In this document: piece after piece, positions 14,502 through 40,309 of the stretch
Numbering within the stretch: position 1 is the first letter of the stretch
How the letters are laid out: every line of letters begins with the position of its first letter
DNA from: Candidatus Scalinduaceae bacterium
GTDB lineage: Bacteria; Planctomycetota; Brocadiia; Brocadiales; Scalinduaceae
NCBI GenBank assembly: GCA_046759445.1
Contig: JBHICG010000027.1
Span: 1-40,309 of the forward strand
Length of the DNA: 40,309 bases
Direction of reading: 5' to 3'
The notes under the pieces: generated by a model
Databases searched by the model: none
What the model was told of the DNA's origin: nothing
Seen by the model: only the letters and a program-made list of their open reading frames with translations
Position numbers and translations under genes: made by a program

Positions 14502-14638
14502 TTTATTTATATTCCAAAATCAAAAAGCCCTAAAATGTAAATGTCGTTGGAAGTTTCATAAGCTTATTTAAACCACTTTCTGTATCTCCCAAAGGATGTA
14601 AAAAATCACAAAATATAAAAATGTAAAAATCCAGAAGC

Positions 14639-21008: not shown

Positions 21009-21371
21009 TTTGATTCCTTTCCTCCTAGTATGGGAATAATAAAAATATATAGTAGGTTTCCCTGGTTATTAGAAATCAGGAACTATCACAATGTTTTTTA
21101 TTAATTAGGATATAATTTTTACAGACACTTGTTCAAATTGCCTGTTAGTGCAGGCAGCGTTAAGGCAATTATATTACAACCATAAGTGTGGCCTGGTATT
21201 AATTATTGAATATATTTTAATAAGCATGAAAAAGATGAAACAAAACAGAAATAAAGGATCTTTTATCCTCTCTTATTTAATCGGTTTATGTTGAAATTTA
21301 TACCGTAAACATAATACATCCACTTAGCCCGTCAATGCATACGCAGCCAATGCGCAGTTTTTATCTAAAAG

Positions 21372-21414
21372 CCTCCCCTCCCCTCTCTTTCCAAAAGAGG
21401 GAATGGGGAGGGAT
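21372..21414. repeat. Intergenic REP-like palindrome
   Basis: CCTCCCC...CTCTTT-CCA-AAAGAG...GGGGAGG inverted repeat just downstream of the 21465-22301 gene. Confidence 0.6.
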
Positions 21415-21464
21415 AGATCTCCTTTCTGCTTTATGGCAATTTGTCGACATGAATGTATTCTTAT

Positions 21465-25612: not shown

Positions 25613-25724
25613 ATTGGAAGTAGTGTCAAATTATCAAGTGCAGAATATAGAAAATTGAATTCCCCATTTGTATTATCTCTTTCTTTTATATTTTTACTTC
25701 GTTTAAGTTCATTAATTGGATTCA

Positions 25725-26141
25725 CTATCCTTTATTCGCAGAGCTTGCTTTGAAATAGACTTTTGGTAAATCCGCCTCACGAATAGTCTGTAATATGCGC
25801 AGGGCATCACCCAGGAAGGCATTAGAATCACCATTAATTATTACGGTGACATCGTCTCCAGACTCTTTTTTCTCTACTAGTTTTTTAGAAAGTTCAGTTT
25901 GAGATGTAACTGGTTCTTTGTTGAAAAAGAGTTTGCCATCTTTTGTAATGCTAATTGTAACAAAGTCCTTTGGCTCAATATTTTGAACCTTCTTCAATTC
26001 AGGATTTTCAACATCTACCAGTTCAAGAAAGACCATCCTGGTCATCCCAATGATGCAGAAGATTACTATAATGAATATTATGTCTAACAAAGCAAGCATG
26101 TTAAATTCAGGTGTGCGCGCATACTTTTTTGATAATCTCAT
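25725..26141 (-). CDS. exbD: ExbD/TolR-family biopolymer transport protein
   Basis: FNMLALLDIIFIIVIF TM with the conserved Asp; ISITKDGKLFFN; VIINGDSNA. Confidence 0.9.
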   Translation of the reverse strand: MRLSKKYARTPEFNMLALLDIIFIIVIFCIIGMTRMVFLELVDVENPELKKVQNIEPKDFVTISITKDGKLFFNKEPVTSQTELSKKLVEKKESGDDVTVIINGDSNAFLGDALRILQTIREADLPKVYFKASSANKG

Positions 26142-26367
26142 ATTAAAATCTCACTTTGTAGCATTAGTCTGTAAACGCTTTGGACAGGCAGGGACGAAAA
26201 CCTATTCGAGTTGTTTACTCTGTTAAAATAAGTATGTTCCTTCAAACATGTATATCTAATCTATGGTAAATAATAATGGTATTTTCATATTATATTTATA
26301 TGTCTATTTAACAGGGTGAGCCTAATAACGAAAAACAAGCGATTGCGTATACACCCTCTAGGTCATT

Positions 26368-26997
26368 CTATGGTTTCTGGCATCTTATTTTTGCTAATTT
26401 AAATTCATTTAATCTTGACTCGATTTTTGATAGCGCCCTATCTGCTATTCCACCAAAGAAGTGGCTTGCTGCCAGATTGACTACAGCAACAACTAAACCG
26501 AGAAAAGTCGTTGTCATTGCCTCAGATATACCTCTTGCTATCAACGACATGTCAACTGTCTGACTCATTGTTCCAAATGCCTTGATTAACCCCGTAATAG
26601 TACCCAATAGTCCCAGTGCAGGCGCTATAACGGCACATGCATTAAGTATTCGTAAGTAACTATGTGACCTGCCGAATTCCTTGTCCACAGCTATTGCTAT
26701 TACGTTGTCCATCTCTTCCCTTTGAGGTATATCAGGAAGTAAATATCTGAATATTCGTACAAAGAGGTCTTTTGATTTTTTTGCTAACCCGCACGCCTCA
26801 ACAAATCTTCCAACTTTTATTGATTCGATTATTCTAGATTCACGAAAGGAATTTCTCCTAATCCACAGGAAGGACCAGAAGGTCATTCTTTCCATAATTA
26901 CGCCTATTGATAATATCCAGAGGAAAATAAGACATACTCCTATAGGACCACCATTTTTTAAAACTGTATTTAAAATATCCATCAGAAGTTTCTCCAA
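26368..26997 (-). CDS. exbB: MotA/TolQ/ExbB proton-channel protein
   Basis: GGPIG...IMER, APALGLLGTITGLIKAF, GISEAMTTTFLGLVVA. Confidence 0.9.
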   Translation of the reverse strand: MEKLLMDILNTVLKNGGPIGVCLIFLWILSIGVIMERMTFWSFLWIRRNSFRESRIIESIKVGRFVEACGLAKKSKDLFVRIFRYLLPDIPQREEMDNVIAIAVDKEFGRSHSYLRILNACAVIAPALGLLGTITGLIKAFGTMSQTVDMSLIARGISEAMTTTFLGLVVAVVNLAASHFFGGIADRALSKIESRLNEFKLAKIRCQKP

Positions 26998-27025
26998 TTT
27001 AAAATTAGTTCATTGTAGTTGCTGA

Positions 27026-27415
27026 TTATTCTTCAAGAAATAATTCTTTTGTACTTTCACTTTCCAATTCACCATAAACCAGAAAACAACGATAACACCT
27101 ATGACACGTGAAATCACATGAATCCAGGGTTCTACTAGCAATGTATTTGCGAAAGGCATTTATTCTCTCGACAGACATATTATTATTTATATTCAAAATC
27201 TTCCTTTCAATCTTGCTGCCAATCTCTTCCCCTTTACCATCGTAATTTGATGAATAGTGAGATTTTTTATCTGACACACGTTTTGCGTGATTCAATTGTC
27301 TAACTATGTCAATGTTTGGTCTATCAAGATATGCCAAATAATCAGTTCCTGGTGAATCATCAATTGATCTTGAGGAAAGAGTCCACCACAGCATGGCTAA
27401 GAGCAAGATTGTCAT
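27026..27415 (-). CDS. Hypothetical protein with C-terminal 4-Cys motif
   Basis: AGGAAGGA RBS; hydrophobic N-terminus; CDFTCHRCYRCFLVYG near the C-terminus. Confidence 0.65.
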   Translation of the reverse strand: MTILLLAMLWWTLSSRSIDDSPGTDYLAYLDRPNIDIVRQLNHAKRVSDKKSHYSSNYDGKGEEIGSKIERKILNINNNMSVERINAFRKYIASRTLDSCDFTCHRCYRCFLVYGELESESTKELFLEE

Positions 27416-27507
27416 TTTCGCATCCTTCCTGAAAAAAGTTTTTAGGCAGGATAATAGGTTAAGACAGATTATAAATCTTATATTGCTGTCTAAAATTTCC
27501 TTTGCGT

Positions 27508-28248
27508 CTAATTTACCTTTTTTCCGTAAAGAAGATTACATACATAGCAATCACTTCTCCCGCATGAAAATTCACAAAGGGCAAGGGTATTGTGTTGAAC
27601 ATCACCCAATAGATTCCTCGTCTCCTGGTAAGTAACTTGCTTGACAATATTACTCAAGTTGTTTTTTGCTTGTAGCGCAATTTTTGCCCTATCCTTGGTA
27701 TTATTCGCTTCGTTCTTTTGAATAAATGGATTTGAAATATTAGTAACGGTTTCCATTGTCTCCATATCCAAATTCAAATTAGAGATGCGTGTTCTAACTT
27801 CTACAAGGTCTTCCCGGAGTTCTACCATCCTATCTTTCAACTCTTTATCTTTTTCGTTATAGGCGCTATCAAAGGAAATCCATGTATTGTTAGCAATATC
27901 GCTATCCACTGACTCCAACATATGTTCAATTTGTGAATATTCCTTTTTTACTTTCTTTGGGAGCGATTTAAGCTGTTTTTCTAAATTATCAATCTCTTCG
28001 AGGATTTCTTTTTCCTTCTTTTGATTGTATGCAAGCTGTCTCCTGGCAATGTAGATATCGTTATTATTGGACATTACTTTCATATAATTTTTTTGTGCCT
28101 TGCTAGCACGTGCTTTTTTATCAACTGTCTTTTTAGCTTCAACGGTACTTTCATTGTGATTTTCATTGATGACTTCAAATGTATAATCTCCATATACGGT
28201 GAAACATGGAAACATTAAGATTATGGGCAATAAGATGAACTTTTTCAT
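27508..28248 (-). CDS. Exported coiled-coil protein with C-terminal 4-Cys motif
   Basis: AGGAG RBS before ATG 28248; signal peptide; heptad-rich region; CEFSCGRSDCYVCNLLYG. Confidence 0.75.
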   Translation of the reverse strand: MKKFILLPIILMFPCFTVYGDYTFEVINENHNESTVEAKKTVDKKARASKAQKNYMKVMSNNNDIYIARRQLAYNQKKEKEILEEIDNLEKQLKSLPKKVKKEYSQIEHMLESVDSDIANNTWISFDSAYNEKDKELKDRMVELREDLVEVRTRISNLNLDMETMETVTNISNPFIQKNEANNTKDRAKIALQAKNNLSNIVKQVTYQETRNLLGDVQHNTLALCEFSCGRSDCYVCNLLYGKKVN

Positions 28249-28345
28249 TGTAAGACTCCTTTCTATCAATAAGTTTAAAACTTAAAAACAATAATCACAA
28301 TTTCAGGTGATTGCCGTATATGATACGGCTAATAAAAGAATGAAC

Positions 28346-29353
28346 TTAGAAATATGTTTCAGCCTGTTTAGTTATCCATTCTTCTAGATCATCATTCCAT
28401 TTAATTCCATCAATCTCAATAGATTTACCGTCCGGGTTATTGACCAAGAATCTTGTTAATTCATCAGTTACCTGATTCATAATCCCTGAGAAGCCATCTA
28501 CAGTATCCCAGACATCTTGTACCTGTGTATACAGCTCAATTGCTGTACCGTCTCCAGAAAGCCCAGATTCGGGTACAGTAAAAATCATCATCATTCTGCA
28601 TACTTCAGCCGCACTTGAAAACTTTTGTCTCTCAACATTAAGCTTATCAAGTAAATGCTCTGTATGGCTACTGAGTTTACGGTAGAATATCCTTTTCCCA
28701 TCGACCATAGCTACAGCCTTGTTGATAACTTCTATTTGACCTGGAGTTTGTTGATTGCTATACGTAAAAGTATCTATTTTGTTCTTTAATAGATACAACT
28801 CTTCCTTCAATTCATCCGTCTGTTCATCCATATATTTCCTCGCAAGCTCACTTGACTTTTTTTGCAATTCCTCAAGCTTGCCCGAATTAATTTTGGCGTC
28901 ATCTGAGAGTTTTTGTAATTTTGCACCAAGTGATGTCTTCGCTTTCTCGAGTTCCCTATCTATTTCTTTAAATGAATCCTTTATTCTGTCTTTCTCTTTT
29001 ATCACTCCCACCATCTTTTCGTCTATCTTGTAAATGCTTTCAGAAAAGACGAATTGAAGTTGATCTAAAGTCTCTTGAGTTCTATTTTGTTTTACAGCCT
29101 CCAGTGCAGCTTTAATTTCTTCGGTAGCTTGATTAAGAGATTTTCTCAATGGTTTTGCCGTGTTAAGAGAATTGCGGATTTCCTTCTTAGGTTTTTCAAT
29201 GTTAATCTTGAACTCAGATATATCCGGGAGGAATCCAGTCCTTCCTTGAAAATCAGAAGACTGTTTTCTTTCAACAGATGCATGCACAACTATATTGTTA
29301 ACAAAGATAAATGATAAAACCATAAATGACATTACACATGATAATTTTTTCAT
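28346..29353 (-). CDS. Exported long coiled-coil protein
   Basis: GGAGGTG RBS, signal peptide (VHA), extended K/E/L-rich helical region. Confidence 0.8.
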   Translation of the reverse strand: MKKLSCVMSFMVLSFIFVNNIVVHASVERKQSSDFQGRTGFLPDISEFKINIEKPKKEIRNSLNTAKPLRKSLNQATEEIKAALEAVKQNRTQETLDQLQFVFSESIYKIDEKMVGVIKEKDRIKDSFKEIDRELEKAKTSLGAKLQKLSDDAKINSGKLEELQKKSSELARKYMDEQTDELKEELYLLKNKIDTFTYSNQQTPGQIEVINKAVAMVDGKRIFYRKLSSHTEHLLDKLNVERQKFSSAAEVCRMMMIFTVPESGLSGDGTAIELYTQVQDVWDTVDGFSGIMNQVTDELTRFLVNNPDGKSIEIDGIKWNDDLEEWITKQAETYF

Positions 29354-29367
29354 TAGTATACACCTCC

Positions 29368-30108
29368 TTAAAATTGAAACATTGGGTTTGAATTCTCAAC
29401 TATTTGTTTAATCCTTGCTTTTTCTTCCAGGGGCATATTCTTCCAGCTTGCTAAAGCTTCATCTTGTTTTCCTGATGCATATTGAAGGACTCCGAGCAGA
29501 TAATTATCCTCAACTGTAATGGGAAGATTGTTTTTTCTTAAGAATCGAATGAACTGTTCATAATCAGTTCTGGCCGAATCGAAGTTATCCATGCCTATAT
29601 ATGCTACTGCTCTGTTGTGCTGTAAAAATCCAGATACACTACTTTCTCCTTCAATAGCAAGGGCGGCGCTGAAGTCCTCAACTGCAGGTTTGTATCTACC
29701 CTGCAAGATATAAATCCTGCCCCTGAGGTTCAATGAATGAACGTTCAATGGATATTGCTTGATCGATTTGTTTACGTTTCGAAGTGATTCAGATATATTA
29801 CCCGTCTTAAATTCCAATTCTGCCCTGTAATAATATGCCAGTGGAGAATTTTCGGGATAGACATTAATGGCGTCGCTGAAGGTCTGTTTTGCGTTTGAAT
29901 ATTGCTTTATTCTCCATTGGGCTATACCCTTGTTTAAGAGGGCTTGATAATTATCTGAATGTTTTAAACCTTTGTCATAAAAGATAATTGCTTCCTCATA
30001 CCTTCCATCGTGCATATATTGGTCACCACGAGTAAACGACTTCGTAGAATTACATCCAGCAGCTACAACACATCCAAAAAAAATTATTATAAATAACTGT
30101 TTATACAT
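29368..30108 (-). CDS. TPR-repeat lipoprotein
   Basis: GGAGGA RBS before ATG 30108; lipobox AAGC; TPRs (ALLNKGIA, AYYYRAE, SLNLRGRIY, HNRAVAY). Confidence 0.88.
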   Translation of the reverse strand: MYKQLFIIIFFGCVVAAGCNSTKSFTRGDQYMHDGRYEEAIIFYDKGLKHSDNYQALLNKGIAQWRIKQYSNAKQTFSDAINVYPENSPLAYYYRAELEFKTGNISESLRNVNKSIKQYPLNVHSLNLRGRIYILQGRYKPAVEDFSAALAIEGESSVSGFLQHNRAVAYIGMDNFDSARTDYEQFIRFLRKNNLPITVEDNYLLGVLQYASGKQDEALASWKNMPLEEKARIKQIVENSNPMFQF

Positions 30109-30152
30109 AACTTTTTCCTCCAAATCTAAAAAGTAAATTTATTTTAACTAAT

Positions 30153-30185
30153 CTGTTAATCAAAGAATATTTGTCTAGTGGTGTA
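30153..30185 (-). promoter_or_regulatory. Conserved bipartite motif, copy 3 (TACACCA-N15-TTGATTAAC)
   Basis: Same 15-nt spacer; directly upstream of the TPR-lipoprotein/ExbBD gene run. Confidence 0.65.
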
Positions 30186-30268
30186 AAAAATTATTTTTTT
30201 ATCAAAAATAATTCCTATACAACATTATTCCAGCTCTCACTATTCAGGTAATTCCATGCATAAAATTT

Positions 30269-30679
30269 CTAAGTTTTATGTCTAACTAACTGATTTTGTT
30301 TAGCAGAATCTTCTACATCTGCTTCTGGTGGTAAATGACTTAATACAGTCTCTTGTTCATAGGTTTTAAATTTTACAATTTCCTTTATGCCCCAGTATAT
30401 CTGGAATCCTCCAAATATTGTCCAGAAGCTATTACTTGATTCAAGACCGCCAAGGCCATTGAGAAAACCTATGAGCATGAGTCCCATTCCAAGAATGATG
30501 AACATTATTCTGTGTTTCACTATAAAGCAGAGAATACCAATAATAATCAGCACTATCCCCCACTCTGCCCATAGAAGCGATGATAGGACAAAATGTAATA
30601 TACCCATAATTATCAGCCCAGCACCCCAACTATTTAGGTCTTCTGAAATCACATTCTTTATATCTTTAACTTCAGCCAT
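30269..30679 (-). CDS. Hypothetical 4-TM membrane protein
   Basis: AGGAG RBS; four hydrophobic segments. Confidence 0.75.
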   Translation of the reverse strand: MAEVKDIKNVISEDLNSWGAGLIIMGILHFVLSSLLWAEWGIVLIIIGILCFIVKHRIMFIILGMGLMLIGFLNGLGGLESSNSFWTIFGGFQIYWGIKEIVKFKTYEQETVLSHLPPEADVEDSAKQNQLVRHKT

Positions 30680-30722
30680 AATATTACTCTCCTTCCTTAA
30701 AATTATTCTGTCAGTAGATTAC

Positions 30723-30995
30723 TTAAGCTGTTTTCTCAACAATGATGTCGGTATCTTTAACTTCTGGAATATTAACCACCCTGGGCATTGAAATAAGCAC
30801 TATCTGGGTGATAATCACTATAAAATCTAAGATTACAAATACGCCTGTATTTTCAATAGTTCCTCCTCCTGCTCCTATAACTATTCCTACAAAAAAAGCA
30901 AACCCAGCCCCCACTCCTAACGGCATTAAGGAAAACCATTTCCAGCCTCTATTCCATGCAATAACCGTTAATACTATTTCCGCTATTAGTAACAT
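30723..30995 (-). CDS. Hypothetical small membrane protein
   Basis: GGAGGA RBS; three hydrophobic segments. Confidence 0.7.
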   Translation of the reverse strand: MLLIAEIVLTVIAWNRGWKWFSLMPLGVGAGFAFFVGIVIGAGGGTIENTGVFVILDFIVIITQIVLISMPRVVNIPEVKDTDIIVEKTA

Positions 30996-31041
30996 TTCTT
31001 TTCCTCCTTCTTTTTTAAGATGTTATAAATATTGTTTTTTC

Positions 31042-31230
31042 TCAGTAAACAATTCTTACTGAATTACTATAACGCTTTATAAATTCTGACAGTGTAACTA
31101 CCGCAAGTAAGCTCGTATTTATTGGTAACTTAGATACTTTTTCTGATTCTTCCTCAAAGATTGATAATAAATCCATTAGAGTGAAAGATGATTTGTCCAG
31201 AGTATCCGTATCTTCCGTGTCTTTCTGCAT
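31042..31230 (-). CDS. Small hypothetical protein (62 aa), paralog of 7084-7260
   Basis: AAGGAGG RBS before ATG 31230; FTLMDLLSIFEEE...TLSEFIKRY. Confidence 0.72.
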   Translation of the reverse strand: MQKDTEDTDTLDKSSFTLMDLLSIFEEESEKVSKLPINTSLLAVVTLSEFIKRYSNSVRIVY

Positions 31231-31284
31231 TTGATTTAACCTCCTTTCTTTTCTGGTTAAAGAAAAATTTTTTTTCACCCTATT

Positions 31285-31317
31285 ACTAAAATCAGCGCTA
31301 AATCGAAAGATGGTGTA
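31285..31317 (-). promoter_or_regulatory. Conserved bipartite motif, copy 4 (TACACCA-N15-CTGATTTTAGT)
   Basis: Same spacing; upstream of the 62-aa gene. Confidence 0.6.
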
Positions 31318-31439
31318 AAAAAATTATTATAGTTTTTCGGAATTTCTATGACCTATTGAGATTGAAGTAGTTTTTATGCTTAATTGTGTTATGGCGGGTT
31401 ATGAGCGAAGTGAATGAGATTCTTATTGTATATATTCAG

Positions 31440-31545
31440 TAATTAGTTTCTAGTTGCGGAAAGCTTATAAAAATGTCATTGGCAATTCAGTAACGGCAGA
31501 ATTGCTTATGTGACAATATAGTGTTTCCGCAACAAATACTAATTA
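31440..31545. repeat. Long imperfect inverted repeat
   Basis: Nested arm pairs TAATTAGT/ACTAATTA, GTTGCGGAAA/TTTCCGCAAC, TGTCA/TGACA and GCAATTC/GAATTGC. Confidence 0.65.
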
Positions 31546-31584
31546 GATAACTATTTTGGAAAAACAAATAAAATCATAATGTTT

Positions 31585-31965
31585 TTATTGAAACTTATAA
31601 GTTACCTTTTTTTCTGTTTCTTCTAGTAATCTTTCTTTGGTTAGATAAGATTTCTCAATATATACAAGATTTGGGTCTGTTTTTCTAAGGCACTTATATC
31701 GTCTTTCAGGATAGGCACTGATTACTATTACGGGAATATCTTCAAACTCCGGCATACTTTTTAGGTACAAGAAAAACGTGTCTCCTGTAACCATATCCAA
31801 AAGTATGTCCAGGATTATTAAATCTGGTTTGTCTTCCTTTAACTTCATCATCGCTTCATCTCCATCATAGGCATAAATAATATTATAATTTCTGCCCTCA
31901 AACATTAGCTCATATAAGTCATGAAAGAACTTTTCATCTTCAATTATCATTATTTTTTTGTTCAT
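31585..31965 (-). CDS. Single-domain response regulator (receiver only)
   Basis: GAGGAGG RBS before ATG 31965; IMIIEDE, PDLIILDI, IPVIVISA, YIEK. Confidence 0.9.
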   Translation of the reverse strand: MNKKIMIIEDEKFFHDLYELMFEGRNYNIIYAYDGDEAMMKLKEDKPDLIILDILLDMVTGDTFFLYLKSMPEFEDIPVIVISAYPERRYKCLRKTDPNLVYIEKSYLTKERLLEETEKKVTYKFQ

Positions 31966-32027
31966 ATGTCCTCCTCTCAGTACAAAAGGGAATAGCAATG
32001 TAGATAAAAGTTTGATTGCCTTTTACT

Positions 32028-32060
32028 GCATATATCTATGCTAGACTATAAAATGGTGTA
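32028..32060 (-). promoter_or_regulatory. Weak copy of the bipartite motif (TACACCA-N15-TAGATATAT)
   Basis: The upstream box and T-tract match copies 3 and 4; the downstream box is degenerate. Lies upstream of the receiver gene. Confidence 0.35.
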
Positions 32061-32602
32061 AAAAAAATATTGTTACACATAAATTCTTTTTCAAGAATAC
32101 TATATATAATAGTAACCGGTCTCTTATGATGACTAAAGCTTTTACGTCAATTCGTTTTCTACGCCCTAATATGAATATTTTGAAAAATTATTAACTAGTG
32201 TGGACAAAACTTAGATTGGTACAGATTTTAAGTGCAAACAAAGGTGTTTTGTCTTGGTTGTCTATCGATGAGCTTTTAATTGACAAAGATAGTGATATCC
32301 TGTAACGTAATGAATAATTAACTGTGATGTAAGAGTATGATTTGATTTGCTTTATGAATGATGAATAAGATAGGAAGTTTTTTATTAAAAATTGAAATAG
32401 AAGACTTCGGTTATTAAACTATTCAATTCTGCAAAATGTAGTTTTTGAATGAAAACCTTTTACTTTACGGATTCAACAATAACTAAGTCATAAGTGTTTT
32501 ATTTCAAATTAGCTTATATAATTTCTGAAACATAAATACTATATAATTTGATACAAGATTTGTACATGTTTAACGAATAATTGTGTCGAAAATAAAATAT
32601 TA

Positions 32603-32635
32603 TGCACCAAATTCATTTTTTGTGGTGATTAATAT
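32603..32635 (+). promoter_or_regulatory. Conserved bipartite motif, copy 5 (TGCACCA-N15-GTGATTAATAT)
   Basis: Both boxes identical to copies 1 and 2; upstream of the sigma gene. Confidence 0.7.
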
Positions 32636-32734
32636 AATATTGGAATAAATGTATAGTCTTCTATATGTTGTTTTAAAAAAATATAACGACATCTGCAACA
32701 TTTGGGTAAGTTTTCTAACTTAATTTGTTTTTTC

Positions 32735-32767
32735 TGCACCAGTAGGAAAACTTGTAATGATTATTTA
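32735..32767 (+). promoter_or_regulatory. Conserved bipartite motif, copy 6 (TGCACCA-N15-ATGATTATTTA)
   Basis: Second tandem copy upstream of the sigma gene. Confidence 0.62.
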
Positions 32768-32936
32768 GATATTCGTTAGGATAAAGCTTTTGTATAAAGG
32801 GTTACCAACTTACAATGAATATCAGTGATGTAAACGAATCAATCTAAATATAATAACGGTGGGGCCATATGGTTTGAGAATTTATCTCTCGATAGGCCCT
32901 TACGCCTTTATACACCCTCCACATGATTTTGAGTAA

Positions 32937-33668
32937 TTGCCAAAGGTAACTTCACCCATGCCAGATGAACTGACTAACGAAAAACTTATAGAATTAAAAA
33001 GGATTATTAATGAAGATAGTCCAGATGCTGAAGAGGCAAGAAGGATATTTTGTAACTTTATACGATATAAGGTTGAAAAGATTCTAAACAAGAGATCAAT
33101 TAGATATGGCAAACCTTATAAGTATTATCTTAATAGCTATTTGGATATAGGAATAGGTGTAGCGCTTTTAGCATTGTGTAAAAAATGGAATTCGGAAATC
33201 AATGTGCCATATATGGCTTTTTTCTGGATGTATGTAAAAAATTGGATTAATGATGAAATCAATAAAAATGAAGAAAGATTAATTTCAATTGATCAATCAA
33301 CAAAAGAAAATGATGATGAAGCACGTACATTAGGAGATACTGTCCCGGCTAAAGAATTACCAATAAAATACATTGATTTAGGTATGCGTGTTGCGGAAAT
33401 AATATATGATCAGAAATATAAGAACCAAAAATTTATATGGCTGCTGGCAAAAGGTTATAGTTATAGAGAAATGGAAAGGGAATTTGGTATTAATCGTAGA
33501 ACTTTGACAAGCATGCTGAAAAACGTAATGGAAAGATTGCAAAATGAGATGAGATCGTTCTTTGAGATGAGGAATTTGGATATTGATAATGAGACGGCAA
33601 TAAAGATGTTGAAGTATTTGCATTGCCATAATATTCTAAAAGAAAGGAGTGACAACAATGAAGGCTGA
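32937..33668 (+). CDS. Divergent sigma70-family (ECF/SigH-like) sigma factor
   Basis: Region-2-like ALLALCKKWN...YMAFFWMYVKNWINDEI, linker ISIDQ...TLGDTV, and region-4 HTH GYSYREMEREFGINRRTL. Overlaps a zinc-finger anti-sigma gene. Start may be ATG 32958. Confidence 0.72.
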   Translation: MPKVTSPMPDELTNEKLIELKRIINEDSPDAEEARRIFCNFIRYKVEKILNKRSIRYGKPYKYYLNSYLDIGIGVALLALCKKWNSEINVPYMAFFWMYVKNWINDEINKNEERLISIDQSTKENDDEARTLGDTVPAKELPIKYIDLGMRVAEIIYDQKYKNQKFIWLLAKGYSYREMEREFGINRRTLTSMLKNVMERLQNEMRSFFEMRNLDIDNETAIKMLKYLHCHNILKERSDNNEG

Positions 33669-34467
33669 ACAACATATAGCAATTGACGAACTCATGATAT
33701 ACCTGGAAAATTCTACTGATTCTGAAGAAAACGTGATTATTGAGGAACACTTGGCGGAATGCGATGCGTGTGTGGCTAATCTAAGCTCTCTTGATGCATT
33801 AAAGACAGGATTAAGGAAGTTCGGGGAGCATTCACAGGAGTTAGTAGAAAGTGGTGCATCTACCCACTTAACAGATGAAGAGATTCCCAGTTATGTCAAG
33901 GATATGTGTGATGAGGATAAAAAAAGAATGATAGTGACTCACCTTGCTGGCTGTGAAAAATGCTTCAATGATGTGCTTGCTATAGAGAATGTATTAGAAC
34001 AAATAGAATCTGAAGCAACATTAATTAAAAAAGTTTCTATTATTTCCAAGTTTATAGTAAGTCACCCAACCAGAATTCCTGCAGTAGAAAGAGAGGGAAA
34101 GGAATTAATTCGTGAAGCTGCAAGAAATTGTTTTGCACCGTTTTTATTGGAGAGAGCATTTAGCTTTTCATTCAAAGGGACGGAAAGTACAGAGACCAAA
34201 CTATACAAGAAACCCAGAAAGATGGATATCAAGGGTTTTACGATTGAAATGACCCAAACTCTTACAAAACCACCAAAAGTTATAATAGGGATCATGGCCA
34301 AAGATGATTTTAAACAGGTAAAGGTTACAATAATCTATTTGAAAGAAGGACAAGAAAAAGAACAATCTGAGATGATATCTCTTAGACAAAGAAACGCCGT
34401 AATCCATAAAGAAAATATGACAGTTGATGACATAATCAACATTGAGGTGCGAGGATACAAATCGTAA
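33658..34467 (+). CDS. Soluble anti-sigma-like protein with two zf-HC2 (ZAS-type) motifs
   Basis: AAGGAG RBS before ATG 33658; HIAIDELMIYLE...HLAECDAC and HLTDEEIPSYVK...HLAGCEKC; no TM segment. Confidence 0.8.
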   Translation: MKAEQHIAIDELMIYLENSTDSEENVIIEEHLAECDACVANLSSLDALKTGLRKFGEHSQELVESGASTHLTDEEIPSYVKDMCDEDKKRMIVTHLAGCEKCFNDVLAIENVLEQIESEATLIKKVSIISKFIVSHPTRIPAVEREGKELIREAARNCFAPFLLERAFSFSFKGTESTETKLYKKPRKMDIKGFTIEMTQTLTKPPKVIIGIMAKDDFKQVKVTIIYLKEGQEKEQSEMISLRQRNAVIHKENMTVDDIINIEVRGYKS

Positions 34468-34533
34468 AGAGTTGGTTTTACTAGCAACCCGCAACTATAA
34501 TCTCCTTAAAATGATAAAAAGGAATTAGTAAAC

Positions 34534-34848
34534 ATGGAGTCCACTAATCCACAAATTAATGAATCAGAGGTTGAAATTAAGATTGAGGAGTTAAGAAAGG
34601 AAAGAGAATCTGGCAAATCACATTTTATATGCTACCTCAAGGCATTGGATATCTTTGTTGATCTGTGTAATGGAAATCCTGAAGAAAGTAAGATAGATTC
34701 AAAAATTATTAAATCACTTTCCAGAGAGCTTGCCTTTAACTTGAGAATGGAATTGGAATATTTTGTTAACTCTATCGTAGATGAGAGGGTTAAGGAGAAA
34801 TGGAAAGAACTGATAAAAAAACTTAAGGAGTCTCATTCCCAATGTTGA
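34534..34848 (+). CDS. Small helical hypothetical protein
   Basis: AAGGA RBS; its end overlaps the start of the next gene. Confidence 0.65.
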   Translation: MESTNPQINESEVEIKIEELRKERESGKSHFICYLKALDIFVDLCNGNPEESKIDSKIIKSLSRELAFNLRMELEYFVNSIVDERVKEKWKELIKKLKESHSQC

Positions 34849-35993
34849 TAAACGTAAATACAATAATGGTAAAAGGAACTGATGTCGGGACTAAGGAAAA
34901 CAAACAAAATGGGAAAATTCATTATATTCAACTATCGCTAATCAAGGAAGGTGAGTATGACCTCATTATGCCTAGTCTTGAGGATAGTACTAAAGAAAAG
35001 GAGAGATTAAAAACAGTCATTAACAGGATTCGAGGGTTAAAGAACATAGATCAATTACGCTTCCGTATTGATTTACGCATCGACGAAGATGGAAACCTAG
35101 ATTATCAGGAACAATTGGATGATTTAAAGTCATTAGAGCTTTCTATCGGAATAAGCATTCAGGCGTGTTGTTGTTGGAAAGATATATGGGATAGAATATG
35201 GTCTGAGTGGAGCTTTAGCGGTGTTATTGATGGGCTAAATTGTGAAATCCGCAAAATAGACTCACTCAATGCCAAACTTAATGCTGCCGTATTCAATGAT
35301 GATAATATAAAATACATTATGATCCCATATGATAATAAGCAAGAAACAATAAACTGGGTTAAGGAAGAGGGAATCAGATATGAGGAGGGTTCCAAGACTG
35401 GTATAAAAATTACTGATAATAAAAAAAAACCTCTTCTCCTTAGCAGAGTTTGGTCATTGGCAACCAAAAATACTATTACGAGGATAGCACTGATATTATG
35501 GATATTATCAATAATTTATATCCCGATAAGATACCTTTTCTGGAATGATATCCAGTCGTGGAAGTCAGGTATTCCACAGGTAACCATAAATCTACCCGTT
35601 AACAACCCCAAAAAGGTAAAGGAAAAACTTTTGGGTAAAGGTTTTCCAGAAGACCAACTAAAAGAGATTTCCTTATCATCCTTAACTAAAATGAAACAGG
35701 GTCGCAAGGTATTAATTACAAATAGAGATGGGGCTATTGAGTTTGAAATTACTGATTTACTAGATTGGACGATAATATCCAGTTACATTTGCTGTGGGTA
35801 CGTTATTTTATTTGCCTTTGTACTTGTTATGATTGCATTAAGAAATAATAACAGCGACATTAAAGAAAATCGTGGAGATATAAATTATGATTCCGTAATC
35901 CTGCCGTTAATTAACAAAGAGATTATTTTTGTAGACAATATAAAAAAAGCCGAAACCATTGTAGAATACAAGATCCATCAAACCGTAGGGTAA
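34842..35993 (+). CDS. Membrane-anchored Lon-protease-like (S16 proteolytic fold) protein lacking an AAA+ module
   Basis: LKSLELSIGI...FSGVIDG...EIRKIDSLNAKLNAA...IKYIMIPYDN and C-terminal EIIFVDNIKKA follow the Lon P-domain motif order; two TM helices lie in between. Confidence 0.65.
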   Translation: MLINVNTIMVKGTDVGTKENKQNGKIHYIQLSLIKEGEYDLIMPSLEDSTKEKERLKTVINRIRGLKNIDQLRFRIDLRIDEDGNLDYQEQLDDLKSLELSIGISIQACCCWKDIWDRIWSEWSFSGVIDGLNCEIRKIDSLNAKLNAAVFNDDNIKYIMIPYDNKQETINWVKEEGIRYEEGSKTGIKITDNKKKPLLLSRVWSLATKNTITRIALILWILSIIYIPIRYLFWNDIQSWKSGIPQVTINLPVNNPKKVKEKLLGKGFPEDQLKEISLSSLTKMKQGRKVLITNRDGAIEFEITDLLDWTIISSYICCGYVILFAFVLVMIALRNNNSDIKENRGDINYDSVILPLINKEIIFVDNIKKAETIVEYKIHQTVG

Positions 35994-36060
35994 TTAAAAT
36001 TAAAATCTTGCTTAACTTCTACCAGACCTTAAAATCACTCTCAAGGAGTTTTCATTCTGC

Positions 36061-36205
36061 CACTGACAGATACAGATTATCATGATGAAAATATTATCTA
36101 CGTGCCCGCCTGCCCGCCCGGCAAATCTGTTTGTAGGGAATGACCGTCCAATTCGGCACGCGGGCACGCTTAGTCAGTGAAAATCTGGTGCGCCATGAGG
36201 CGCAC
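36061..36205. repeat. Nested GC-rich palindromic (REP/MITE-like) elements
   Basis: CACTGAC/GTCAGTG encloses CGTGCCCGC/GCGGGCACG; followed by a GTGCGCC-ATGA-GGCGCAC hairpin. Confidence 0.6.
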
Positions 36206-36745
36206 ATATACTATACTGGCTAAATTTAACATGAGAAAGTCCTTACTATTGTAAAACTTGGGACACTTCCCATATTTATTTACTCTTTTAAGTTACTTTA
36301 GAACATTGATTATTTGCATTTATAGATAGAGCTGGTTGTAGTGTTTATAATTCAAATCCATATATAAACGATTATGCCCAGAATGAACCTGTCAACTTTG
36401 ATGTTCCTTATGGGTTACATATGATACAATTTTTATAATAGAAAACATGGAGAAGGAAGGGAAATTTCTCGAAGAAGCTCTTGGTATAATAAAGTTTACT
36501 GAAGAAAGATGGTTTTAGATATTAAAAACCGACTCTAATAATCAAAGAGTCTATTTTTTATGCCTTAACCCTATTTCTTAATTGTGTAAGTACCTTTGCT
36601 CCCTCATATACTAAAACACCAAGTCTAAGTCTGTATATATCTAATCGGAAAACACTGTGAAAAAGATATAAAAGTAATAGTAAAGAAATATAATTTTTAT
36701 GATAGGGATTATAATAATGCAACTTGGGTGCTTCGTGTAAAAGTG

Positions 36746-37954
36746 CTAACTTTTAATAATCTTCGCAAATCTACGTTTACCTACTCTTAGTATCATACCG
36801 GTTTTTACATCTACTTCTTGTTTTGGATCAGTTAATGTATTATCGTCAATACTCACTCCTCCCTGTGTGATTAATCTTCTTGCTTCTCCGTTAGTAGAGG
36901 CGAACCCACTTAATACCAGTAATTTTACTATCCATATCTTATGATTTTCAAGCTCATGAGAAGGAAGCTTGACTTGTGGAATATTATCCGGGAGTTTGTG
37001 CTCTTTAAATATCCTGTCAAATTCCTCCGCTGCTTTTTCGGCTATTTCATTATTATAATAGCGACAGACAACGGCCTTTCCAAGATTAACCTTTGTCTGG
37101 CGTGGATGGTGGTTTAACATATCATCTATTTCTTCCAGGGTTATATCTGTGGCTAGCTCGAAGTACTTACGCATTAGGTTATCGGGTATTGACATTGTTT
37201 TCCCAAAGATTTCTTTTGGTTCTTCGTAAATTCCTATATAGTTGTCAAGACTTTTACTCATTTTTTTATTTCCATCGATTCCCTCGAGTAGGGGGGTAGT
37301 AAGCGCCACTTGTGGTTCCATATTCCTGCCCCTTTGAAGGTCACGGCCGACAAGTAGGCTAAAGATTTGATCTGTACCACCAATTTCTATATCGCTTCTT
37401 ACCATTATTGAATCATATCCCTGCATCAGTGGATAAATGAACTCATGCAGGCTAATGGGGATTCCCGAATTATATCTTTTAGAGAAATCGTCTCTCTCAA
37501 GCATTCTCGCTACTGTCATCTTAGAGGCTAACGTAATTACTTCAGCAAATTGCATATTCTTGAACCACTCACTGTTGTAAAAAATTTCAGTCTTTTCTAG
37601 ATTCAATATCTTTCCTAATTGATTAAGATAGGTCTTGGCATTCTTTGTTATCTCTTCATGAGAAAGTTGTGGTCGTGTCTTATTTACGCCAGAGGGGTCA
37701 CCTACAATTGCAGTGTAGTCTCCAATTATAAGCACAGCGGTATGTCCAAGTTCCTGAAAGTCGTGCAGCTTGTGTATGGGAATGGCATTTCCAATATGTA
37801 TGTCTGGTGCAGTTGGGTCGAGGCCTAGTTTAATACGTAAGGGATTTTTTGTTTTTATAGACTTATCTAGTTTTGCAATGAGTTCTTCTTCACTAACTAT
37901 TTCGACAATACCACGTTTGATTATCTTTAATTGATCTTCGATATTCTTAAACAT
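36746..37954 (-). CDS. tyrS: Tyrosine--tRNA ligase
   Basis: GLDPTAPDIHIGN, YPLMQGYD, GGTDQ, KMSKS, C-terminal S4 domain. Confidence 0.97.
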   Translation of the reverse strand: MFKNIEDQLKIIKRGIVEIVSEEELIAKLDKSIKTKNPLRIKLGLDPTAPDIHIGNAIPIHKLHDFQELGHTAVLIIGDYTAIVGDPSGVNKTRPQLSHEEITKNAKTYLNQLGKILNLEKTEIFYNSEWFKNMQFAEVITLASKMTVARMLERDDFSKRYNSGIPISLHEFIYPLMQGYDSIMVRSDIEIGGTDQIFSLLVGRDLQRGRNMEPQVALTTPLLEGIDGNKKMSKSLDNYIGIYEEPKEIFGKTMSIPDNLMRKYFELATDITLEEIDDMLNHHPRQTKVNLGKAVVCRYYNNEIAEKAAEEFDRIFKEHKLPDNIPQVKLPSHELENHKIWIVKLLVLSGFASTNGEARRLITQGGVSIDDNTLTDPKQEVDVKTGMILRVGKRRFAKIIKS

Positions 37955-37996
37955 ATCAGACTTTTATTCCTAAATCTATTAGTGAAGACAAGAAAA

Positions 37997-38746
37997 CTAA
38001 TTCGTGGCCACATAACCTTTTAGAAGGTGTTTGAATGAAATTAAAAAGGCTATTGTTGCTGAGTTGTGGAAGATATGAACGGTTATTGGTGCGATTAAAG
38101 AACCAGTTTTCTCGAAAAGATAGGCCAATAGAAGCCCAAGTATAAATATCTGCAGGAATACATGTGCATTTAGGTGTACTAAAGCAAAAAGAAATCCACT
38201 AACAAAAATAGCGCTAAGTTTTCCATAAGTAGTTTTTACGGCAGATTGAAGGAATCCTCTGAAAAGCATTTCCTCAATAATAGGTGCAGCTAATATACCG
38301 AAAAGAATCATGAAAATAAGTACTGCTAATGAATCTTCCTCCAGGATCTTATTAATTATTTCTTGCTGTTTAGGTAATGTGCCAAAGATTCTTGAAATGA
38401 AATCAACCACAAATCCAGCTAATACTATAACTGGAAGTACGATAAAATAACGTTTAAGACCGAGCTTTGTATCTCTCTTCCAATTAGAAGTTGTAAATCC
38501 TAAAGAGGCTATGGGTAAATTGTAACTTATCCTAATAATATAGAAAACGTATAAGCAGGTTAAAATATTTACGATTAGCGATAAGCTAAGGATCACTATG
38601 TTTTGGCCAAATACTTTTACTAGATCCATTCCAAATATTTGTTTTATAATCCATAAAAGAACAGGTATTCCAACCAACATCATAAAGAAGTAAAACAGAA
38701 AAACCTTAAATATATCTATTAAATTCCACCTTGTATTGTCTAACAT
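37997..38746 (-). CDS. CPBP (CAAX/Abi) family intramembrane metalloprotease
   Basis: APIIEEMLFRG, FALVH, VHIFHN and multiple TM segments. Confidence 0.92.
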   Translation of the reverse strand: MLDNTRWNLIDIFKVFLFYFFMMLVGIPVLLWIIKQIFGMDLVKVFGQNIVILSLSLIVNILTCLYVFYIIRISYNLPIASLGFTTSNWKRDTKLGLKRYFIVLPVIVLAGFVVDFISRIFGTLPKQQEIINKILEEDSLAVLIFMILFGILAAPIIEEMLFRGFLQSAVKTTYGKLSAIFVSGFLFALVHLNAHVFLQIFILGLLLAYLFEKTGSLIAPITVHIFHNSATIAFLISFKHLLKGYVATN

Positions 38747-38804
38747 TTTTAGGTCAAATACCTTTTATTAAATGGAAATGGGTTTTTTCTTTATAATATG
38801 TTTA

Positions 38805-39209
38805 CTATTTTTTTTGCCTTGTTTTCTTTTTAATACTTTTCTTATACTCTTCGTATTCATCTTCATTCATAAAAGTTTCTAGTTGTTTTGGTTCAATTAT
38901 CCTTACCTTAATAAACCAGCCATCACCAAAAGGGTCTTTTTTTAGTTTGCTTAAATTAGTAGGTAAATCCGAATTTACCTTTATTACTTCACCACTAATA
39001 GGTGCGATTAGGTCAGAGTAATTATTTATGGATTCTATTTCACCATAAGAAATACCAGTAATAATTTCTTCTTTAACCTTCGGCAAGACAAGATCTATAA
39101 TGTTACCAATTTCGTTTATGAAATAATCGGTTACGCCAATGGTTACAATATCTTTTCTTGATTTTATCCAGTAATGTGTCTGAGAATATTTAAGTTTTCC
39201 TGTAGTCAT
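38805..39209 (-). CDS. gcvH: Glycine cleavage H-like protein lacking the lipoyl-lysine
   Basis: YSQTHYWI, IGVTDY, APISGEVIKVN, DPFGDGWFIKV; ESINN replaces ESVKA. Confidence 0.82.
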   Translation of the reverse strand: MTTGKLKYSQTHYWIKSRKDIVTIGVTDYFINEIGNIIDLVLPKVKEEIITGISYGEIESINNYSDLIAPISGEVIKVNSDLPTNLSKLKKDPFGDGWFIKVRIIEPKQLETFMNEDEYEEYKKSIKKKTRQKK

Positions 39210-39210
39210 T

Positions 39211-39774
39211 TTAACATAACATAAAACTGTTTAATTTCGTATATATTGGTCCACTCGGAGTCAGTTTGCTTTGCATCAGAGAGATTTGATTTACTTTTTC
39301 TTGACCAAAGAAATATCCTGCATCAGAGTTTAAAGCGTTTACAAGTTTGGATATGTTTTTCTGAGATTTAATTCTCCCGATTGTAATATGTCCCACATAT
39401 TTTCTGGGTTTACGTTTTATATCAAGCTCTTCAAATCCCTTGTCGAGTCTTTCAAAAATTTTTGAAAGGTTATTTCCTCGATCCCGTGCACAGACATATA
39501 TTACCCGAGGTTTTTTAAAAGTTGGAAACGCACCAACATTTTCTATATTCATAATAAAAGGGCTTAGACAAGAGATTGCATTATTAATTATCTTATTCAA
39601 ATTGGGAAGGTTTGTTTCATCTATATATCCAATAAATTTTAAAGTTAAATGAGTATTTTCAGGGGCAACCCATTTGACATCAGCAGCAGTCTTTTTCAGA
39701 TGATTTAGGAATTCAGATAACCTGTTCTTTATTTCCTTATCGATTTCTATTGCAACAAAGATTCTAATAACCAT
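39211..39774 (-). CDS. thpR: RNA 2',3'-cyclic phosphodiesterase (2H family)
   Basis: RIFVAI, HLTLKFIG and HITIGR (two HxT motifs), SKLTPSGPIY. Confidence 0.93.
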   Translation of the reverse strand: MVIRIFVAIEIDKEIKNRLSEFLNHLKKTAADVKWVAPENTHLTLKFIGYIDETNLPNLNKIINNAISCLSPFIMNIENVGAFPTFKKPRVIYVCARDRGNNLSKIFERLDKGFEELDIKRKPRKYVGHITIGRIKSQKNISKLVNALNSDAGYFFGQEKVNQISLMQSKLTPSGPIYTKLNSFMLC

Positions 39775-39840
39775 TGAAGTTTTAAGGGATTAAGACTTTC
39801 CATATCTTACTCTTTTAACTTGATGAAATTGATACAAACC

Positions 39841-40309
39841 TTAAAAAAATGTATTTATTGTATACTCTATACGCTTAAGTGTTTTTTCCCTGCCTAAAAG
39901 TTCTAAGGTTTCAAAAATTCCTGCACTTGCACCTTTTCCAATAACTGCTGCTCTTATCGGTTGGGCCAATTTACCAAAGCCAATCCCGTGCTCTGTAGCA
40001 ATGGCTCGTAAACAAGCCTCTAGATCTTCTACAGAAAAACTCTCAATTTCCCCTAATCTCTTATGGGCATCTCTTAACAGAGAAGAAACACCGTCTTTCT
40101 TAAAGAATTTCTTGACCGTAACACTATCATAAACAATTTCATTAGAAAAGAAAGGAGATGTTTGTGTTATGAAATCTGATAATGTCTTAAATCTCTCTTT
40201 ATACAAATCCACTAATTTATACAACCATTCATCTGAAATCGACTCAGTATCAAAGCCCGCTTTTTCGATATATGAGTATAATTTTTTAATGAGACTTTTA
40301 GTGGGCATA
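39841..40309 (-). CDS. gltX: Glutamate--tRNA ligase, C-terminal anticodon-binding part (5' end outside window)
   Basis: KERFKTLSD...GKLAQPIRAAVIG...GIFETLELLGREKTLKRI. Confidence 0.85.
   Translation of the reverse strand, partial: MPTKSLIKKLYSYIEKAGFDTESISDEWLYKLVDLYKERFKTLSDFITQTSPFFSNEIVYDSVTVKKFFKKDGVSSLLRDAHKRLGEIESFSVEDLEACLRAIATEHGIGFGKLAQPIRAAVIGKGASAGIFETLELLGREKTLKRIEYTINTFF

Follow-up and report, generated by a model that had tools for sequence, protein, structure and literature searches.

A putative Lon-type protease of the Scalinduaceae with a transmembrane hairpin probably inserted into its proteolytic fold, encoded together with sigma-like and anti-sigma genes

The window analysed here is the whole 40,309-nucleotide stretch of contig JBHICG010000027.1 (positions 1 to 40,309, forward strand; GenBank assembly GCA_046759445.1) from a Candidatus Scalinduaceae bacterium of the planctomycete order Brocadiales; all positions given refer to this stretch. 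The protein of interest is encoded by the last of four plus-strand genes, which make up an operon of 3.1 kb in total: a gene for a 243-residue sigma-70-family, extracytoplasmic function (ECF)-like protein (32937..33668), a gene for a 272-residue soluble anti-sigma factor with tandem zf-HC2 domains (33649..34467), a gene for a 104-residue protein of no known family (34534..34848), and a gene with an ATG start for a 383-residue membrane protein of the Lon type (34842..35993). The end of the sigma-like gene overlaps the start of the anti-sigma gene, and the ATG of the Lon-type gene overlaps the stop codon of the upstream 104-residue open reading frame (ORF) in the sequence ATGTTGA.

The Lon-type protein can be divided into five parts. 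The main N-terminal portion of the predicted Lon proteolytic fold (residues 1-190; 34842..35411) is delimited by profile alignment with LonA, by model confidence and by conservation. The first transmembrane segment (TM1, residues 211-236; 35472..35549) is marked by its hydropathy, by a helix in the model and by a lysine- and arginine-rich preceding flank; it leads into a putative extracytoplasmic loop domain (residues 237-308; 35550..35765), modelled as a strand followed by three short helices and a hairpin of two strands; after this domain comes a second transmembrane segment (TM2, residues 309-335; 35766..35846) that is again evident from hydropathy and as a model helix. The C-terminal part is a predicted strand-strand-helix (residues 347-383; 35880..35990), delimited by model confidence, alignment ranges and a splice test described below; its residues 359-383 would provide the last strand-helix of the Lon fold, and residues 359-374 read KEIIFVDNIKKAETIV. 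Within the N-terminal part, the candidate catalytic residues Ser97 (codon 35130-35132) and Lys145 (codon 35274-35276) lie 48 residues apart; between them, the motif SFSGV (residues 124-128) contains Ser126 (codon 35217-35219), a position that is occupied by threonine in most relatives. After Lys145, the motif IMIPYDN (residues 159-165) includes the IPxxN signature (residues 161-165). Ser97, Lys145, the FSGVI and IMIPYDN motifs, both membrane segments, the loop and the terminal segment from residue 359 all lie where the original prediction, made from the nucleotide sequence of the window, had placed them.

Homology to Lon proteases is detectable by sequence among the relatives of this protein. 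The Pfam family Lon_C (PF05362) is matched by nine of 15 aligned family members at E ≤ 10, and one of twelve members scanned singly exceeds the gathering score (25.4 vs 21.1 bits); the match of that member pairs residues 91-166 with positions 110-178 of the 205-position profile, corresponding to the stretch from the catalytic serine to the IPxxN motif. For comparison with LonA, a profile of 19 proteolytic domains (P-domains) from planctomycete genomes was used. The program hhalign aligned the family profile with this LonA profile over 161 columns (E 4.2e-6, probability 86.8), matching query positions 16-190 to positions 51-220 of the LonA P-domain; Ser97 was paired with the serine of the PSAG motif, Ser126 with the threonine of MTGE, and Lys145 with the second lysine of GGIKEK, which we take to be the catalytic lysine of LonA (the dyad of E. 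coli Lon is S679/K722). Conversely, a hidden Markov model of the LonA P-domains picks up five metagenomic family members (E 1.2e-6 to 5.3e-4). The first family profile, searched against the PDB, had as its best match only Lon protease 2 at E 0.16.

Conservation was counted over 18 distinct relatives, down to 34% identity. Ser97, Gly127, Lys145, Asn165, Glu168 and Trp172 are invariant in all 18, and position 126 is always serine or threonine; the residue two positions after Ser97 is glutamate in the window protein, not glycine. By these alignments, the protein has a Ser-Lys dyad at the canonical Lon positions, with Ser97 as the putative nucleophile and Lys145 as the putative base. The dyad spacing of 48 residues compares with 41-43 residues in CalpL, BsLonBA and AfLonB; for the latter two, the dyads S445/K488 and S509/K552 are described with a spacing of 43 residues (PMC9569914).

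The predicted structure depended on the depth of the alignment. With five sequences, the AlphaFold2 (AF2) model was poor (mean predicted local distance difference test score, pLDDT, 47.1), and Foldseek matched it to Lon only at E ~0.1; with 15 sequences, mean pLDDT rose to 77.4 (predicted template modelling score 0.59), with values of 89-96 over residues 100-180 and of 94, 94 and 87 over residues 350-380. Foldseek then returned 93 matches in the PDB at E ≤ 0.001, the best of them the proteolytic domain of E. coli Lon (4.6e-6), and the matches listed were all Lon, RadA or ComM. Structural alignment with VIA-align gave Z 18.1 and a root-mean-square deviation (rmsd) of 2.4 Å over 168 residues for human LONP1, and Z 17.1 and 2.7 Å over 173 of 182 residues for E. 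coli Lon 594-774; the best Lon matches overall range over Z 17.1-18.1, rmsd 2.4-2.8 Å and 168-174 aligned residues, and the 50 matches listed range over Z 15.4-18.1, rmsd 2.4-3.5 Å and 159-177 aligned residues. A structure search independent of Foldseek, run over 48,161 chains, found 20 chains with Z ≥ 8, all of which have the Lon fold (ComM, LonA, LonB, LonBA, LonC, RadA, BrxL, CalpL and birnavirus VP4); the next chain scored Z 6.4. As judged from these models, the protein has the Lon (S16) proteolytic fold.

The same comparisons suggest where the fold is interrupted. The structural alignments with Lon-fold proteins all span model residues 1 to 375-383, yet only about 160-175 residues are aligned; residues ~190-345 must therefore be left out of the match, with the C-terminal helix pairing with the final part of the Lon domain. 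An alignment with an unrelated fold ends at residue 176, and therefore the alignment tool does give shorter ranges when they apply. The ESM Atlas model, which comes from another predictor, behaves in the same way: its alignments with clusters of Lon_C and ChlI extend from residue 1 to 376-383 and contain 169-190 aligned residues. A splice test, in which edited columns of the family profile were aligned with the LonA profile by hhalign, gave a score of 40.9 (E 1.4e-5) for residues 1-176 alone and of 50.2 (E 6.2e-7, probability 92) for residues 1-176 joined to residues 355-383. The native continuation reached 41.0 (residues 1-190) and 41.4 (residues 1-210), the addition of either of two loop segments to residues 1-176 gave 41.3, and 20 column-shuffled versions of the C-terminal segment gave 41.2-44.7. 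The gain of 9.3 from residues 355-383 thus compares with gains of 0.1-3.8 from native continuation, loop segments or shuffles, and exceeds all 20 of the latter. The spliced alignment extends to position 229 of the 240 positions of the LonA profile, with EIIFVDNIKKAE falling on the terminal strand-helix of LonA.

Sequence conservation shows a corresponding pattern. Mean pairwise identity is highest for residues 347-380 (0.52, level with TM1), compared to 0.42 for the N-terminal Lon part and 0.22 for the linker of residues 336-346; Ile361, Phe363, Val364 and Asn366 are invariant in 16 of 16 sequences, and residues 191-210 have no invariant column. It is very probable that the Lon fold of this protein is interrupted after the IPxxN helix by TM1, the loop and TM2, and is completed by residues 359-383. 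The original prediction had proposed such a split of the proteolytic domain, and had suggested examining the conservation of Ser97 and Lys145 and superposing a model on a Lon P-domain; the invariance of both residues, the recovery of the Lon fold against solved P-domains (Z 17.1-18.1) and, for the split itself, the agreement of two predicted models with solved Lon structures, the controlled splice test and the conservation pattern now support it.

Both hydrophobic segments are pronounced. The Kyte-Doolittle mean over 19 residues peaks at 2.15 in TM1 (residues 214-234) and at 2.66 in TM2 (residues 309-336), and the AF2 model has helices at residues 211-242 and 309-338. In a count of 14 sequences, lysines and arginines number 84 on the flanks that precede TM1 and follow TM2, compared to 34 on the loop-side flanks; the N-terminus is a predicted beta-strand of the Lon fold, and there is no signal peptide. 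This positive-inside count fits a topology with both termini in the cytoplasm and the loop outside, as a split cytoplasmic fold requires. The loop of 72 residues (237-308; pLDDT 67-82) is modelled with strands at 246-251, 288-295 and 298-304 and helices at 256-265, 270-273 and 279-282. The variability of this loop, which the original prediction had singled out for inspection, turned out to be unexceptional: the loop is not hypervariable, with a mean pairwise identity (0.41) close to that of the Lon part (0.42) and with six invariant columns among 72, which include residues of the motifs TINLP, GFP and EFE. A search of the ESM Atlas with residues 236-310 gave no usable feature match, only unnamed or unrelated small-fold entries.

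An ATPase domain is absent from the Lon-type protein. The sequence has neither a Walker A motif nor a match to an AAA family in Pfam or NCBIfam, and the 383 residues are taken up by the Lon fold, two transmembrane helices and the loop, leaving no room for such a domain.

The 104-residue protein encoded directly upstream is predicted to bind the Lon domain. It has no significant match in Pfam, NCBIfam, PADLOC or the PDB. Complexes of the whole Lon-type protein with the 104-residue protein were predicted with each chain supplied as its own alignment, together with three controls; the interface score ipSAE was 0.70, 0.76 and 0.77 for the pair and 0.00 for all three controls. Of 157 solved complexes, 116 reach the mark used for ipSAE, as do two of 215 mismatched pairs; since own alignments were supplied, these counts are only an approximate guide here. 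The partner was modelled with pLDDT 70-71, and the runs agree in at least 96% of contacts. The predicted interface lies away from Ser97 and Lys145; on the side of the Lon domain it involves the N-terminal sheet (residues 1-4, 28-45, 75, 77 and 121), and on the side of the partner two helices (18-25 and 64-79). We know of no similar complex. The beta1-beta2 hairpin of the Lon P-domain is described as part of the substrate-binding site (PMC9569914), and therefore a role of the 104-residue protein as adaptor or gatekeeper is plausible on the predicted geometry.

The first two genes of the operon belong to recognisable regulatory families. The sigma-like protein matches the NCBIfam sigma70-ECF family TIGR02937 with E 9.9e-6 and 25.3 bits, below the cut-off of 42.9, and a profile of six relatives matches regions 3-4 of RpoS (E 5.6e-5) and SigW (E 0.0046) in the PDB; by these profile matches it is a member of the sigma-70 family, and it may be ECF-like. 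The anti-sigma factor matches Pfam zf-HC2 in two stretches (E 6.9e-11; 42.5 bits vs a cut-off of 22.2) and an RsrA-type family of NCBIfam below its cut-off (E 5.6e-7); its profile has no significant match in the PDB. Two HxxxCxxC motifs, at residues 34-41 (33748-33771) and 98-105 (33940-33963), are invariant in six of six relatives. The protein has no hydrophobic segment; its maximum 19-residue Kyte-Doolittle mean is 1.03, and no position reaches 1.6. The gene product thus appears, by its sequence, to be a soluble factor of the zinc-binding anti-sigma (ZAS, zf-HC2) family. None of the four operon genes has a match in PADLOC.

The association of these genes extends to related genomes. Nine distinct genome loci were compared, namely the window and the loci L001-L006, L042 and L043. 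The gene for the 104-residue protein lies directly upstream of the Lon-type gene in all nine, and the anti-sigma gene lies directly upstream of this pair in eight. The sigma-like gene is present in six of the nine; it is a fragment in L006 and absent from L001, and the flank of L042 is too short to judge. L043 (G076:C42), from a second family of the order, has all four operon genes, whose stops and starts overlap. A scan of metagenomes with the anti-sigma alignment found 59 loci, seven of them with full-length-type relatives (46-53% identity); the Lon-type gene follows about 300 bases downstream in six of these seven, and the contig of the seventh breaks off within the anti-sigma gene. Of the 52 metagenome loci that match only as generic ZAS factors, none has a Lon-like ORF at E ≤ 0.01. 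The original prediction had envisaged a one-component transmembrane protease switch; of this term, the switch remains an inference, and "one-component" is probably wrong, given the conserved four-gene operon and the predicted 104-residue partner.

Some of these loci have irregular features. The L043 match was flagged with an internal TGA; an ORF starting from GTG at position 1504 of L043 is nonetheless open for 358 residues. L006 (2565-7737) is located on the same Scalindua contig as L001; the two copies of the Lon-type gene are about 13 kb apart and 33% and 49% identical to the window protein. In the same Scalindua record, a 93-residue ORF matches only the C-terminal quarter of a third Lon copy (68% identity). 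The sigma-like gene of L006 has shrunk to a 91-residue ORF, which is followed by an unrelated 336-residue ORF.

Lon-fold proteases act as ATP-driven quality-control machines and, as recognised more recently, as signal-activated switches such as CalpL. The present protein is a member of the Lon-fold superfamily and not a canonical Lon (LonA, LonB, LonC or LonBA), since it lacks an AAA+ module; nor is it a LonB, because the LonB insert sits in the ATPase module; and it is not a CalpL, because it has no SAVED domain, its anti-sigma factor is of another family, and there is no CRISPR context in the window. In the CalpL-CalpT-CalpS system, as described in a preprint (bioRxiv 10.1101/2024.05.08.593097), an ATPase-less Lon-fold protease with the dyad S154/K195 or S152/K193 is activated by a signal and cleaves the anti-sigma factor, freeing an ECF-like sigma factor; TPR-CHAT/Csx30/CASP-sigma is described there as a second system in which a signal-activated protease cuts an anti-sigma factor and the sigma factor is freed. 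Like CalpL, the present protein is predicted to be an ATPase-less Lon-fold Ser-Lys protease, encoded with an anti-sigma and a sigma-like gene, and the CalpL structure 7qda_A aligns with the model over 137 residues (Z 12.0, rmsd 2.4 Å). In contrast to CalpL, it has no match at E ≤ 1 to a SAVED family of Pfam, the cyclic-oligoadenylate sensor that CalpL has fused to its Lon domain, and its non-Lon part is a transmembrane hairpin with a loop inside the fold; its operon encodes the 104-residue protein as an extra partner; CalpL belongs to a type III CRISPR system, whereas no cas genes were found in the present window; and the input would be extracytoplasmic or membrane-borne instead of a cyclic nucleotide. 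The Lon-type protein is therefore proposed as a transmembrane counterpart of CalpL.

Among other members of the superfamily, archaeal LonB resembles the present protein in that its Lon proteolytic domain is held at the membrane by a hydrophobic insert within a domain and not at a terminus; LonB P-domains align with the model at Z 15-16.4. The membrane insert of LonB is described as belonging to the alpha/beta subdomain of its AAA+ module, between Walker A and Walker B (PMC9569914), in agreement with the statement of the original prediction that archaeal LonB carries its transmembrane segments in the ATPase domain; in the present protein, by contrast, the insert would lie in the proteolytic domain itself, after the IPxxN helix, and would carry a folded domain outside. 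RadA/Sms and ComM (Z 16.5-17.5), the C-terminal domain of BrxL (15.1), LonC (15.3) and birnavirus VP4 (9.5-10.5) share the fold, and VP4, if the titles of its PDB entries are followed, likewise combines a Ser-Lys dyad with the absence of an ATPase; no membrane hairpin inside the fold was noted in any of these stand-alone or accessory Lon-fold entries. To our knowledge, the Lon-like domains of RadA and ComM lack the catalytic dyad, which in the present family is invariant. A Lon proteolytic domain interrupted by membrane helices was found neither in full-text literature searches nor among the matching solved structures. The proposed scheme is also comparable to the processing of RseA by DegS, RseP and ClpXP, where a transmembrane signal leads to proteolysis of an anti-sigma factor and frees an ECF-type sigma factor; the comparison with RseA has been drawn for CalpL as well (bioRxiv 10.1101/2024.05.08.593097). 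RseA, however, is a membrane-spanning anti-sigma factor that is cut by separate site-1 and site-2 proteases, whereas in the present operon the anti-sigma factor appears to be soluble and the putative protease spans the membrane.

From these comparisons, a mechanism can be proposed. Residues 1 to ~176 would form most of a cytoplasmic proteolytic domain; the chain would leave the cytoplasm through TM1, form a 72-residue domain outside and return through TM2, and residues 359-383 would complete the fold. Because the hairpin separates the last strand-helix from the rest of the fold, a movement of TM2 relative to TM1 could gate the active site. If the protease is catalytically active, a signal received by the outside loop or within the membrane could shift TM2 against TM1 and thereby seat or unseat the terminal strand-helix; alternatively, the shift could drive the self-association that Lon-fold proteases need. 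The gated protease might then cut the anti-sigma factor, either directly or by way of the 104-residue protein as adaptor, and the freed sigma factor might direct transcription of the co-located cluster of envelope, caspase and CHAT genes. This chain as a whole, from an active, gated protease through anti-sigma factor cleavage to release of the sigma factor onto the neighbouring cluster, is put forward tentatively, as somewhat short of likely. Its strictest version is doubtful: here, a ligand or protein partner of the loop would shift TM2 and move the last strand-helix in or out, so that the protease becomes active with no need of ATP, phosphorylation or a second messenger and, together with the 104-residue protein as its adaptor, cuts the anti-sigma factor; the sigma factor thus freed would control the neighbouring envelope cluster with its caspase, CHAT and CsgG-like genes.

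Several points weigh against this reading at its different levels. At the level of homology, the Lon-type protein itself has no meaningful match in Pfam, NCBIfam or PADLOC, and no match to Lon_C at E ≤ 1; the family alignment is small, with 14-18 sequences from one order only. With regard to the split, residues 344-382 on their own match the profile weakly (E 0.1), the packing of the C-terminal segment is argued from predicted models and alignment ranges and not from residue-level contacts, and structure predictors may have learnt the Lon fold. With regard to the mechanism, catalysis, substrate and signal are all inferred; the loop has no recognisable ligand-binding fold by the ESM Atlas search; ZAS factors can sense the redox state themselves without a protease; the anti-sigma factor, with its tandem zf-HC2 domains, differs from CalpT, which is described as combining MazF and DUF2080; and L001 has the genes for the Lon-type and 104-residue proteins without an adjacent sigma gene or intact anti-sigma gene.

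The alternative that survives best, while still unlikely, accepts a split Lon protease but regards the transmembrane hairpin as a mere tether, the role proposed for the LonB insert; the protease would be constitutive, and regulation would reside in a redox- or zinc-sensing ZAS factor or in the 104-residue partner. LonB, as described in PMC9569914, offers a precedent for a hairpin insert that anchors a protein in the membrane, the loop lacks a recognisable sensor fold, and the tandem HxxxCxxC motifs are invariant, a feature to be viewed together with the thiol-stress sensing of RsrA-type factors (the RsrA match at E 5.6e-7 is below cut-off). Against this stands the loop itself, a predicted folded domain that is conserved to the same extent as the catalytic part (0.41 vs 0.42, with six invariant columns), which is beyond the needs of a tether; moreover, a simple anchor at the N- or C-terminus would not need an interruption of the fold.

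It is rather unlikely that the substrate is something other than the anti-sigma factor, for example the 104-residue partner, a protein of the membrane or a product of the neighbouring cluster of caspase, CHAT and CsgG-like genes, and that the operon reflects co-regulation only. This alternative would account for L001; the 104-residue protein is also the sole interaction partner that a model supports, and the module always occurs among the same envelope and caspase genes. It has to contend with the position of the anti-sigma gene upstream in eight of nine genome loci and six of seven metagenome loci, with overlapping or tightly spaced genes, and with the precedent, as far as described, of Lon-domain and CHAT proteases that are paired with an anti-sigma and a sigma factor.

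A pseudo-protease, which would serve as a scaffold in the manner of RadA or ComM and hold the sigma/anti-sigma complex or the 104-residue protein at the membrane, is improbable. With Z 16.5-17.5, the Lon-like domains of RadA and ComM resemble the model no less than genuine Lon proteases do, and therefore the fold alone is no proof of protease activity; the glutamate in place of glycine two residues after Ser97 in the window protein points in the same direction. Yet all 18 relatives, the most distant of them 34% identical, have Ser97, Lys145 and a serine or threonine at the position of the MTGE threonine, exactly where the alignment puts the catalytic residues. Finally, a fold that is already complete before TM1, with residues 181-188 (strand) and 199-209 (helix) as its last strand-helix and with residues 347-383 as a separate element, is very improbable: the model does contain this strand and helix, and the first hhalign alignment continues at low confidence through residues 171-190 against the LonA terminal region, but the addition of residues 177-190 or 177-210 brought no gain in the splice test (41.0 and 41.4 vs 40.9, compared to 50.2 with residues 355-383), all Lon-fold alignments end at 375-383, and residues 191-210 lack any invariant column whereas residues 347-380 are the best conserved part, level with TM1.

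If, as in the preferred reading of a gated protease with a split fold, the insert ties the integrity of the catalytic fold to the outside, the protein would represent a very compact receptor protease and a natural case of allostery by domain insertion, acting across a membrane; the design of protease, anti-sigma and sigma factor would be widened from CRISPR-linked defence to envelope signalling, and signalling by completion of a fold, if true, would be a principle new to receptor proteases. Members of the family are few and confined to anammox bacteria, which are themselves hard to grow.

Database searches bear out this narrow distribution. A word-indexed search found five proteins at E ≤ 0.001, an exhaustive phmmer search of 1.84 billion representatives found twelve family members at the same threshold, the window protein included, and a profile search of 5.8 billion proteins found only six family members. 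Within the order, the family occurs in nine of 92 genomes; apart from the window genome, these comprise six of 27 from its own family and two of 47 from another family, with none in the two genomes of its own genus. In a phylum-wide sample of 401 genomes, the family was found in two; four weak local matches in this sample (E 3.5e-4 to 8.2e-4) cover profile positions 84-153, the stretch from serine to lysine, and three of the four fall in ordinary ORFs of LonA or RadA size. The family was encountered only in the order of the window genome, and every relative with a name is recorded as Candidatus Scalindua or Brocadiaceae. The distribution is patchy, as expected of an accessory module. A separate ESM Atlas cluster of 279 hypothetical proteins of ~561 residues, commonest in Planctomycetota and with Lon_C on 13% of its members, aligns with residues 1-330 of the Lon-type protein (216 residues, TM-score 0.45); judging from this model alignment, it may be another membrane-associated Lon-like family.

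Contigs from metatranscriptomes (two DNase-treated runs of one study) match parts of all four operon genes at 95% identity or more, and cover 34808-35439 and 35513-35790 in the region of the Lon-type gene; they are a weak hint that the operon is expressed, as contigs show neither strand, ends nor level, stretches without coverage carry no meaning, and DNA carry-over is possible. A 102-residue antisense ORF lies inside the Lon-type gene (35159-35467, minus strand), with apparent homologs of 66-67% identity at related loci; most simply, it is a shadow of the conserved coding strand and no gene. The operon is flanked upstream by a region without ORFs of at least 40 residues (31999-32936) and downstream by one with ORFs of only 51-54 residues (35994-36745). 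Scans for sigma-70-type promoters and for terminators gave results at chance level (23 matches vs 23.1 expected, and 2 vs 2.2 expected), no 8- or 9-mer upstream of the sigma genes is common to four of five loci, and Rfam has no match in 30000-40309. Among 33 window ORFs scanned for cas families there was no cas gene, only one Cas3-like helicase sub-match inside an Mfd/TRCF protein; this applies to the window only.

The module is always found among the same neighbours: a TPR lipoprotein, proteins of 335, 253 and 129 residues, ExbB/ExbD, and caspase-domain, CsgG/DUF4384 and FGE-sulfatase-domain proteins; the neighbours in the window also include a TPR-CHAT protein of 1080 residues. Homologs of most of these genes flank the sigma/anti-sigma/Lon module in related loci, in varying order. 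In the window, they form a large minus-strand cluster (7877-22301 and 24692-30123), with two caspase-domain proteins (7877-9406 and 9451-11052), a CsgG/DUF4384/BTAD protein (11277-13133), the FGE-sulfatase-domain protein (14639-15850), the TPR-CHAT protein (16137-19379) and the TPR lipoprotein (29368-30123); a 395-residue protein, a 3D-domain protein and ExbB/ExbD are also encoded in this cluster. As a candidate regulon, this envelope, caspase and CHAT cluster may be under the control of the sigma factor. Between the lipoprotein and sigma genes of the window (30269-31998, minus strand) lie genes for a receiver-only response regulator (31585-31998) and for two small multi-pass membrane proteins (30269-30679 and 30723-30995); in L003-L005, the lipoprotein gene and the sigma gene are immediate neighbours in divergent orientation.

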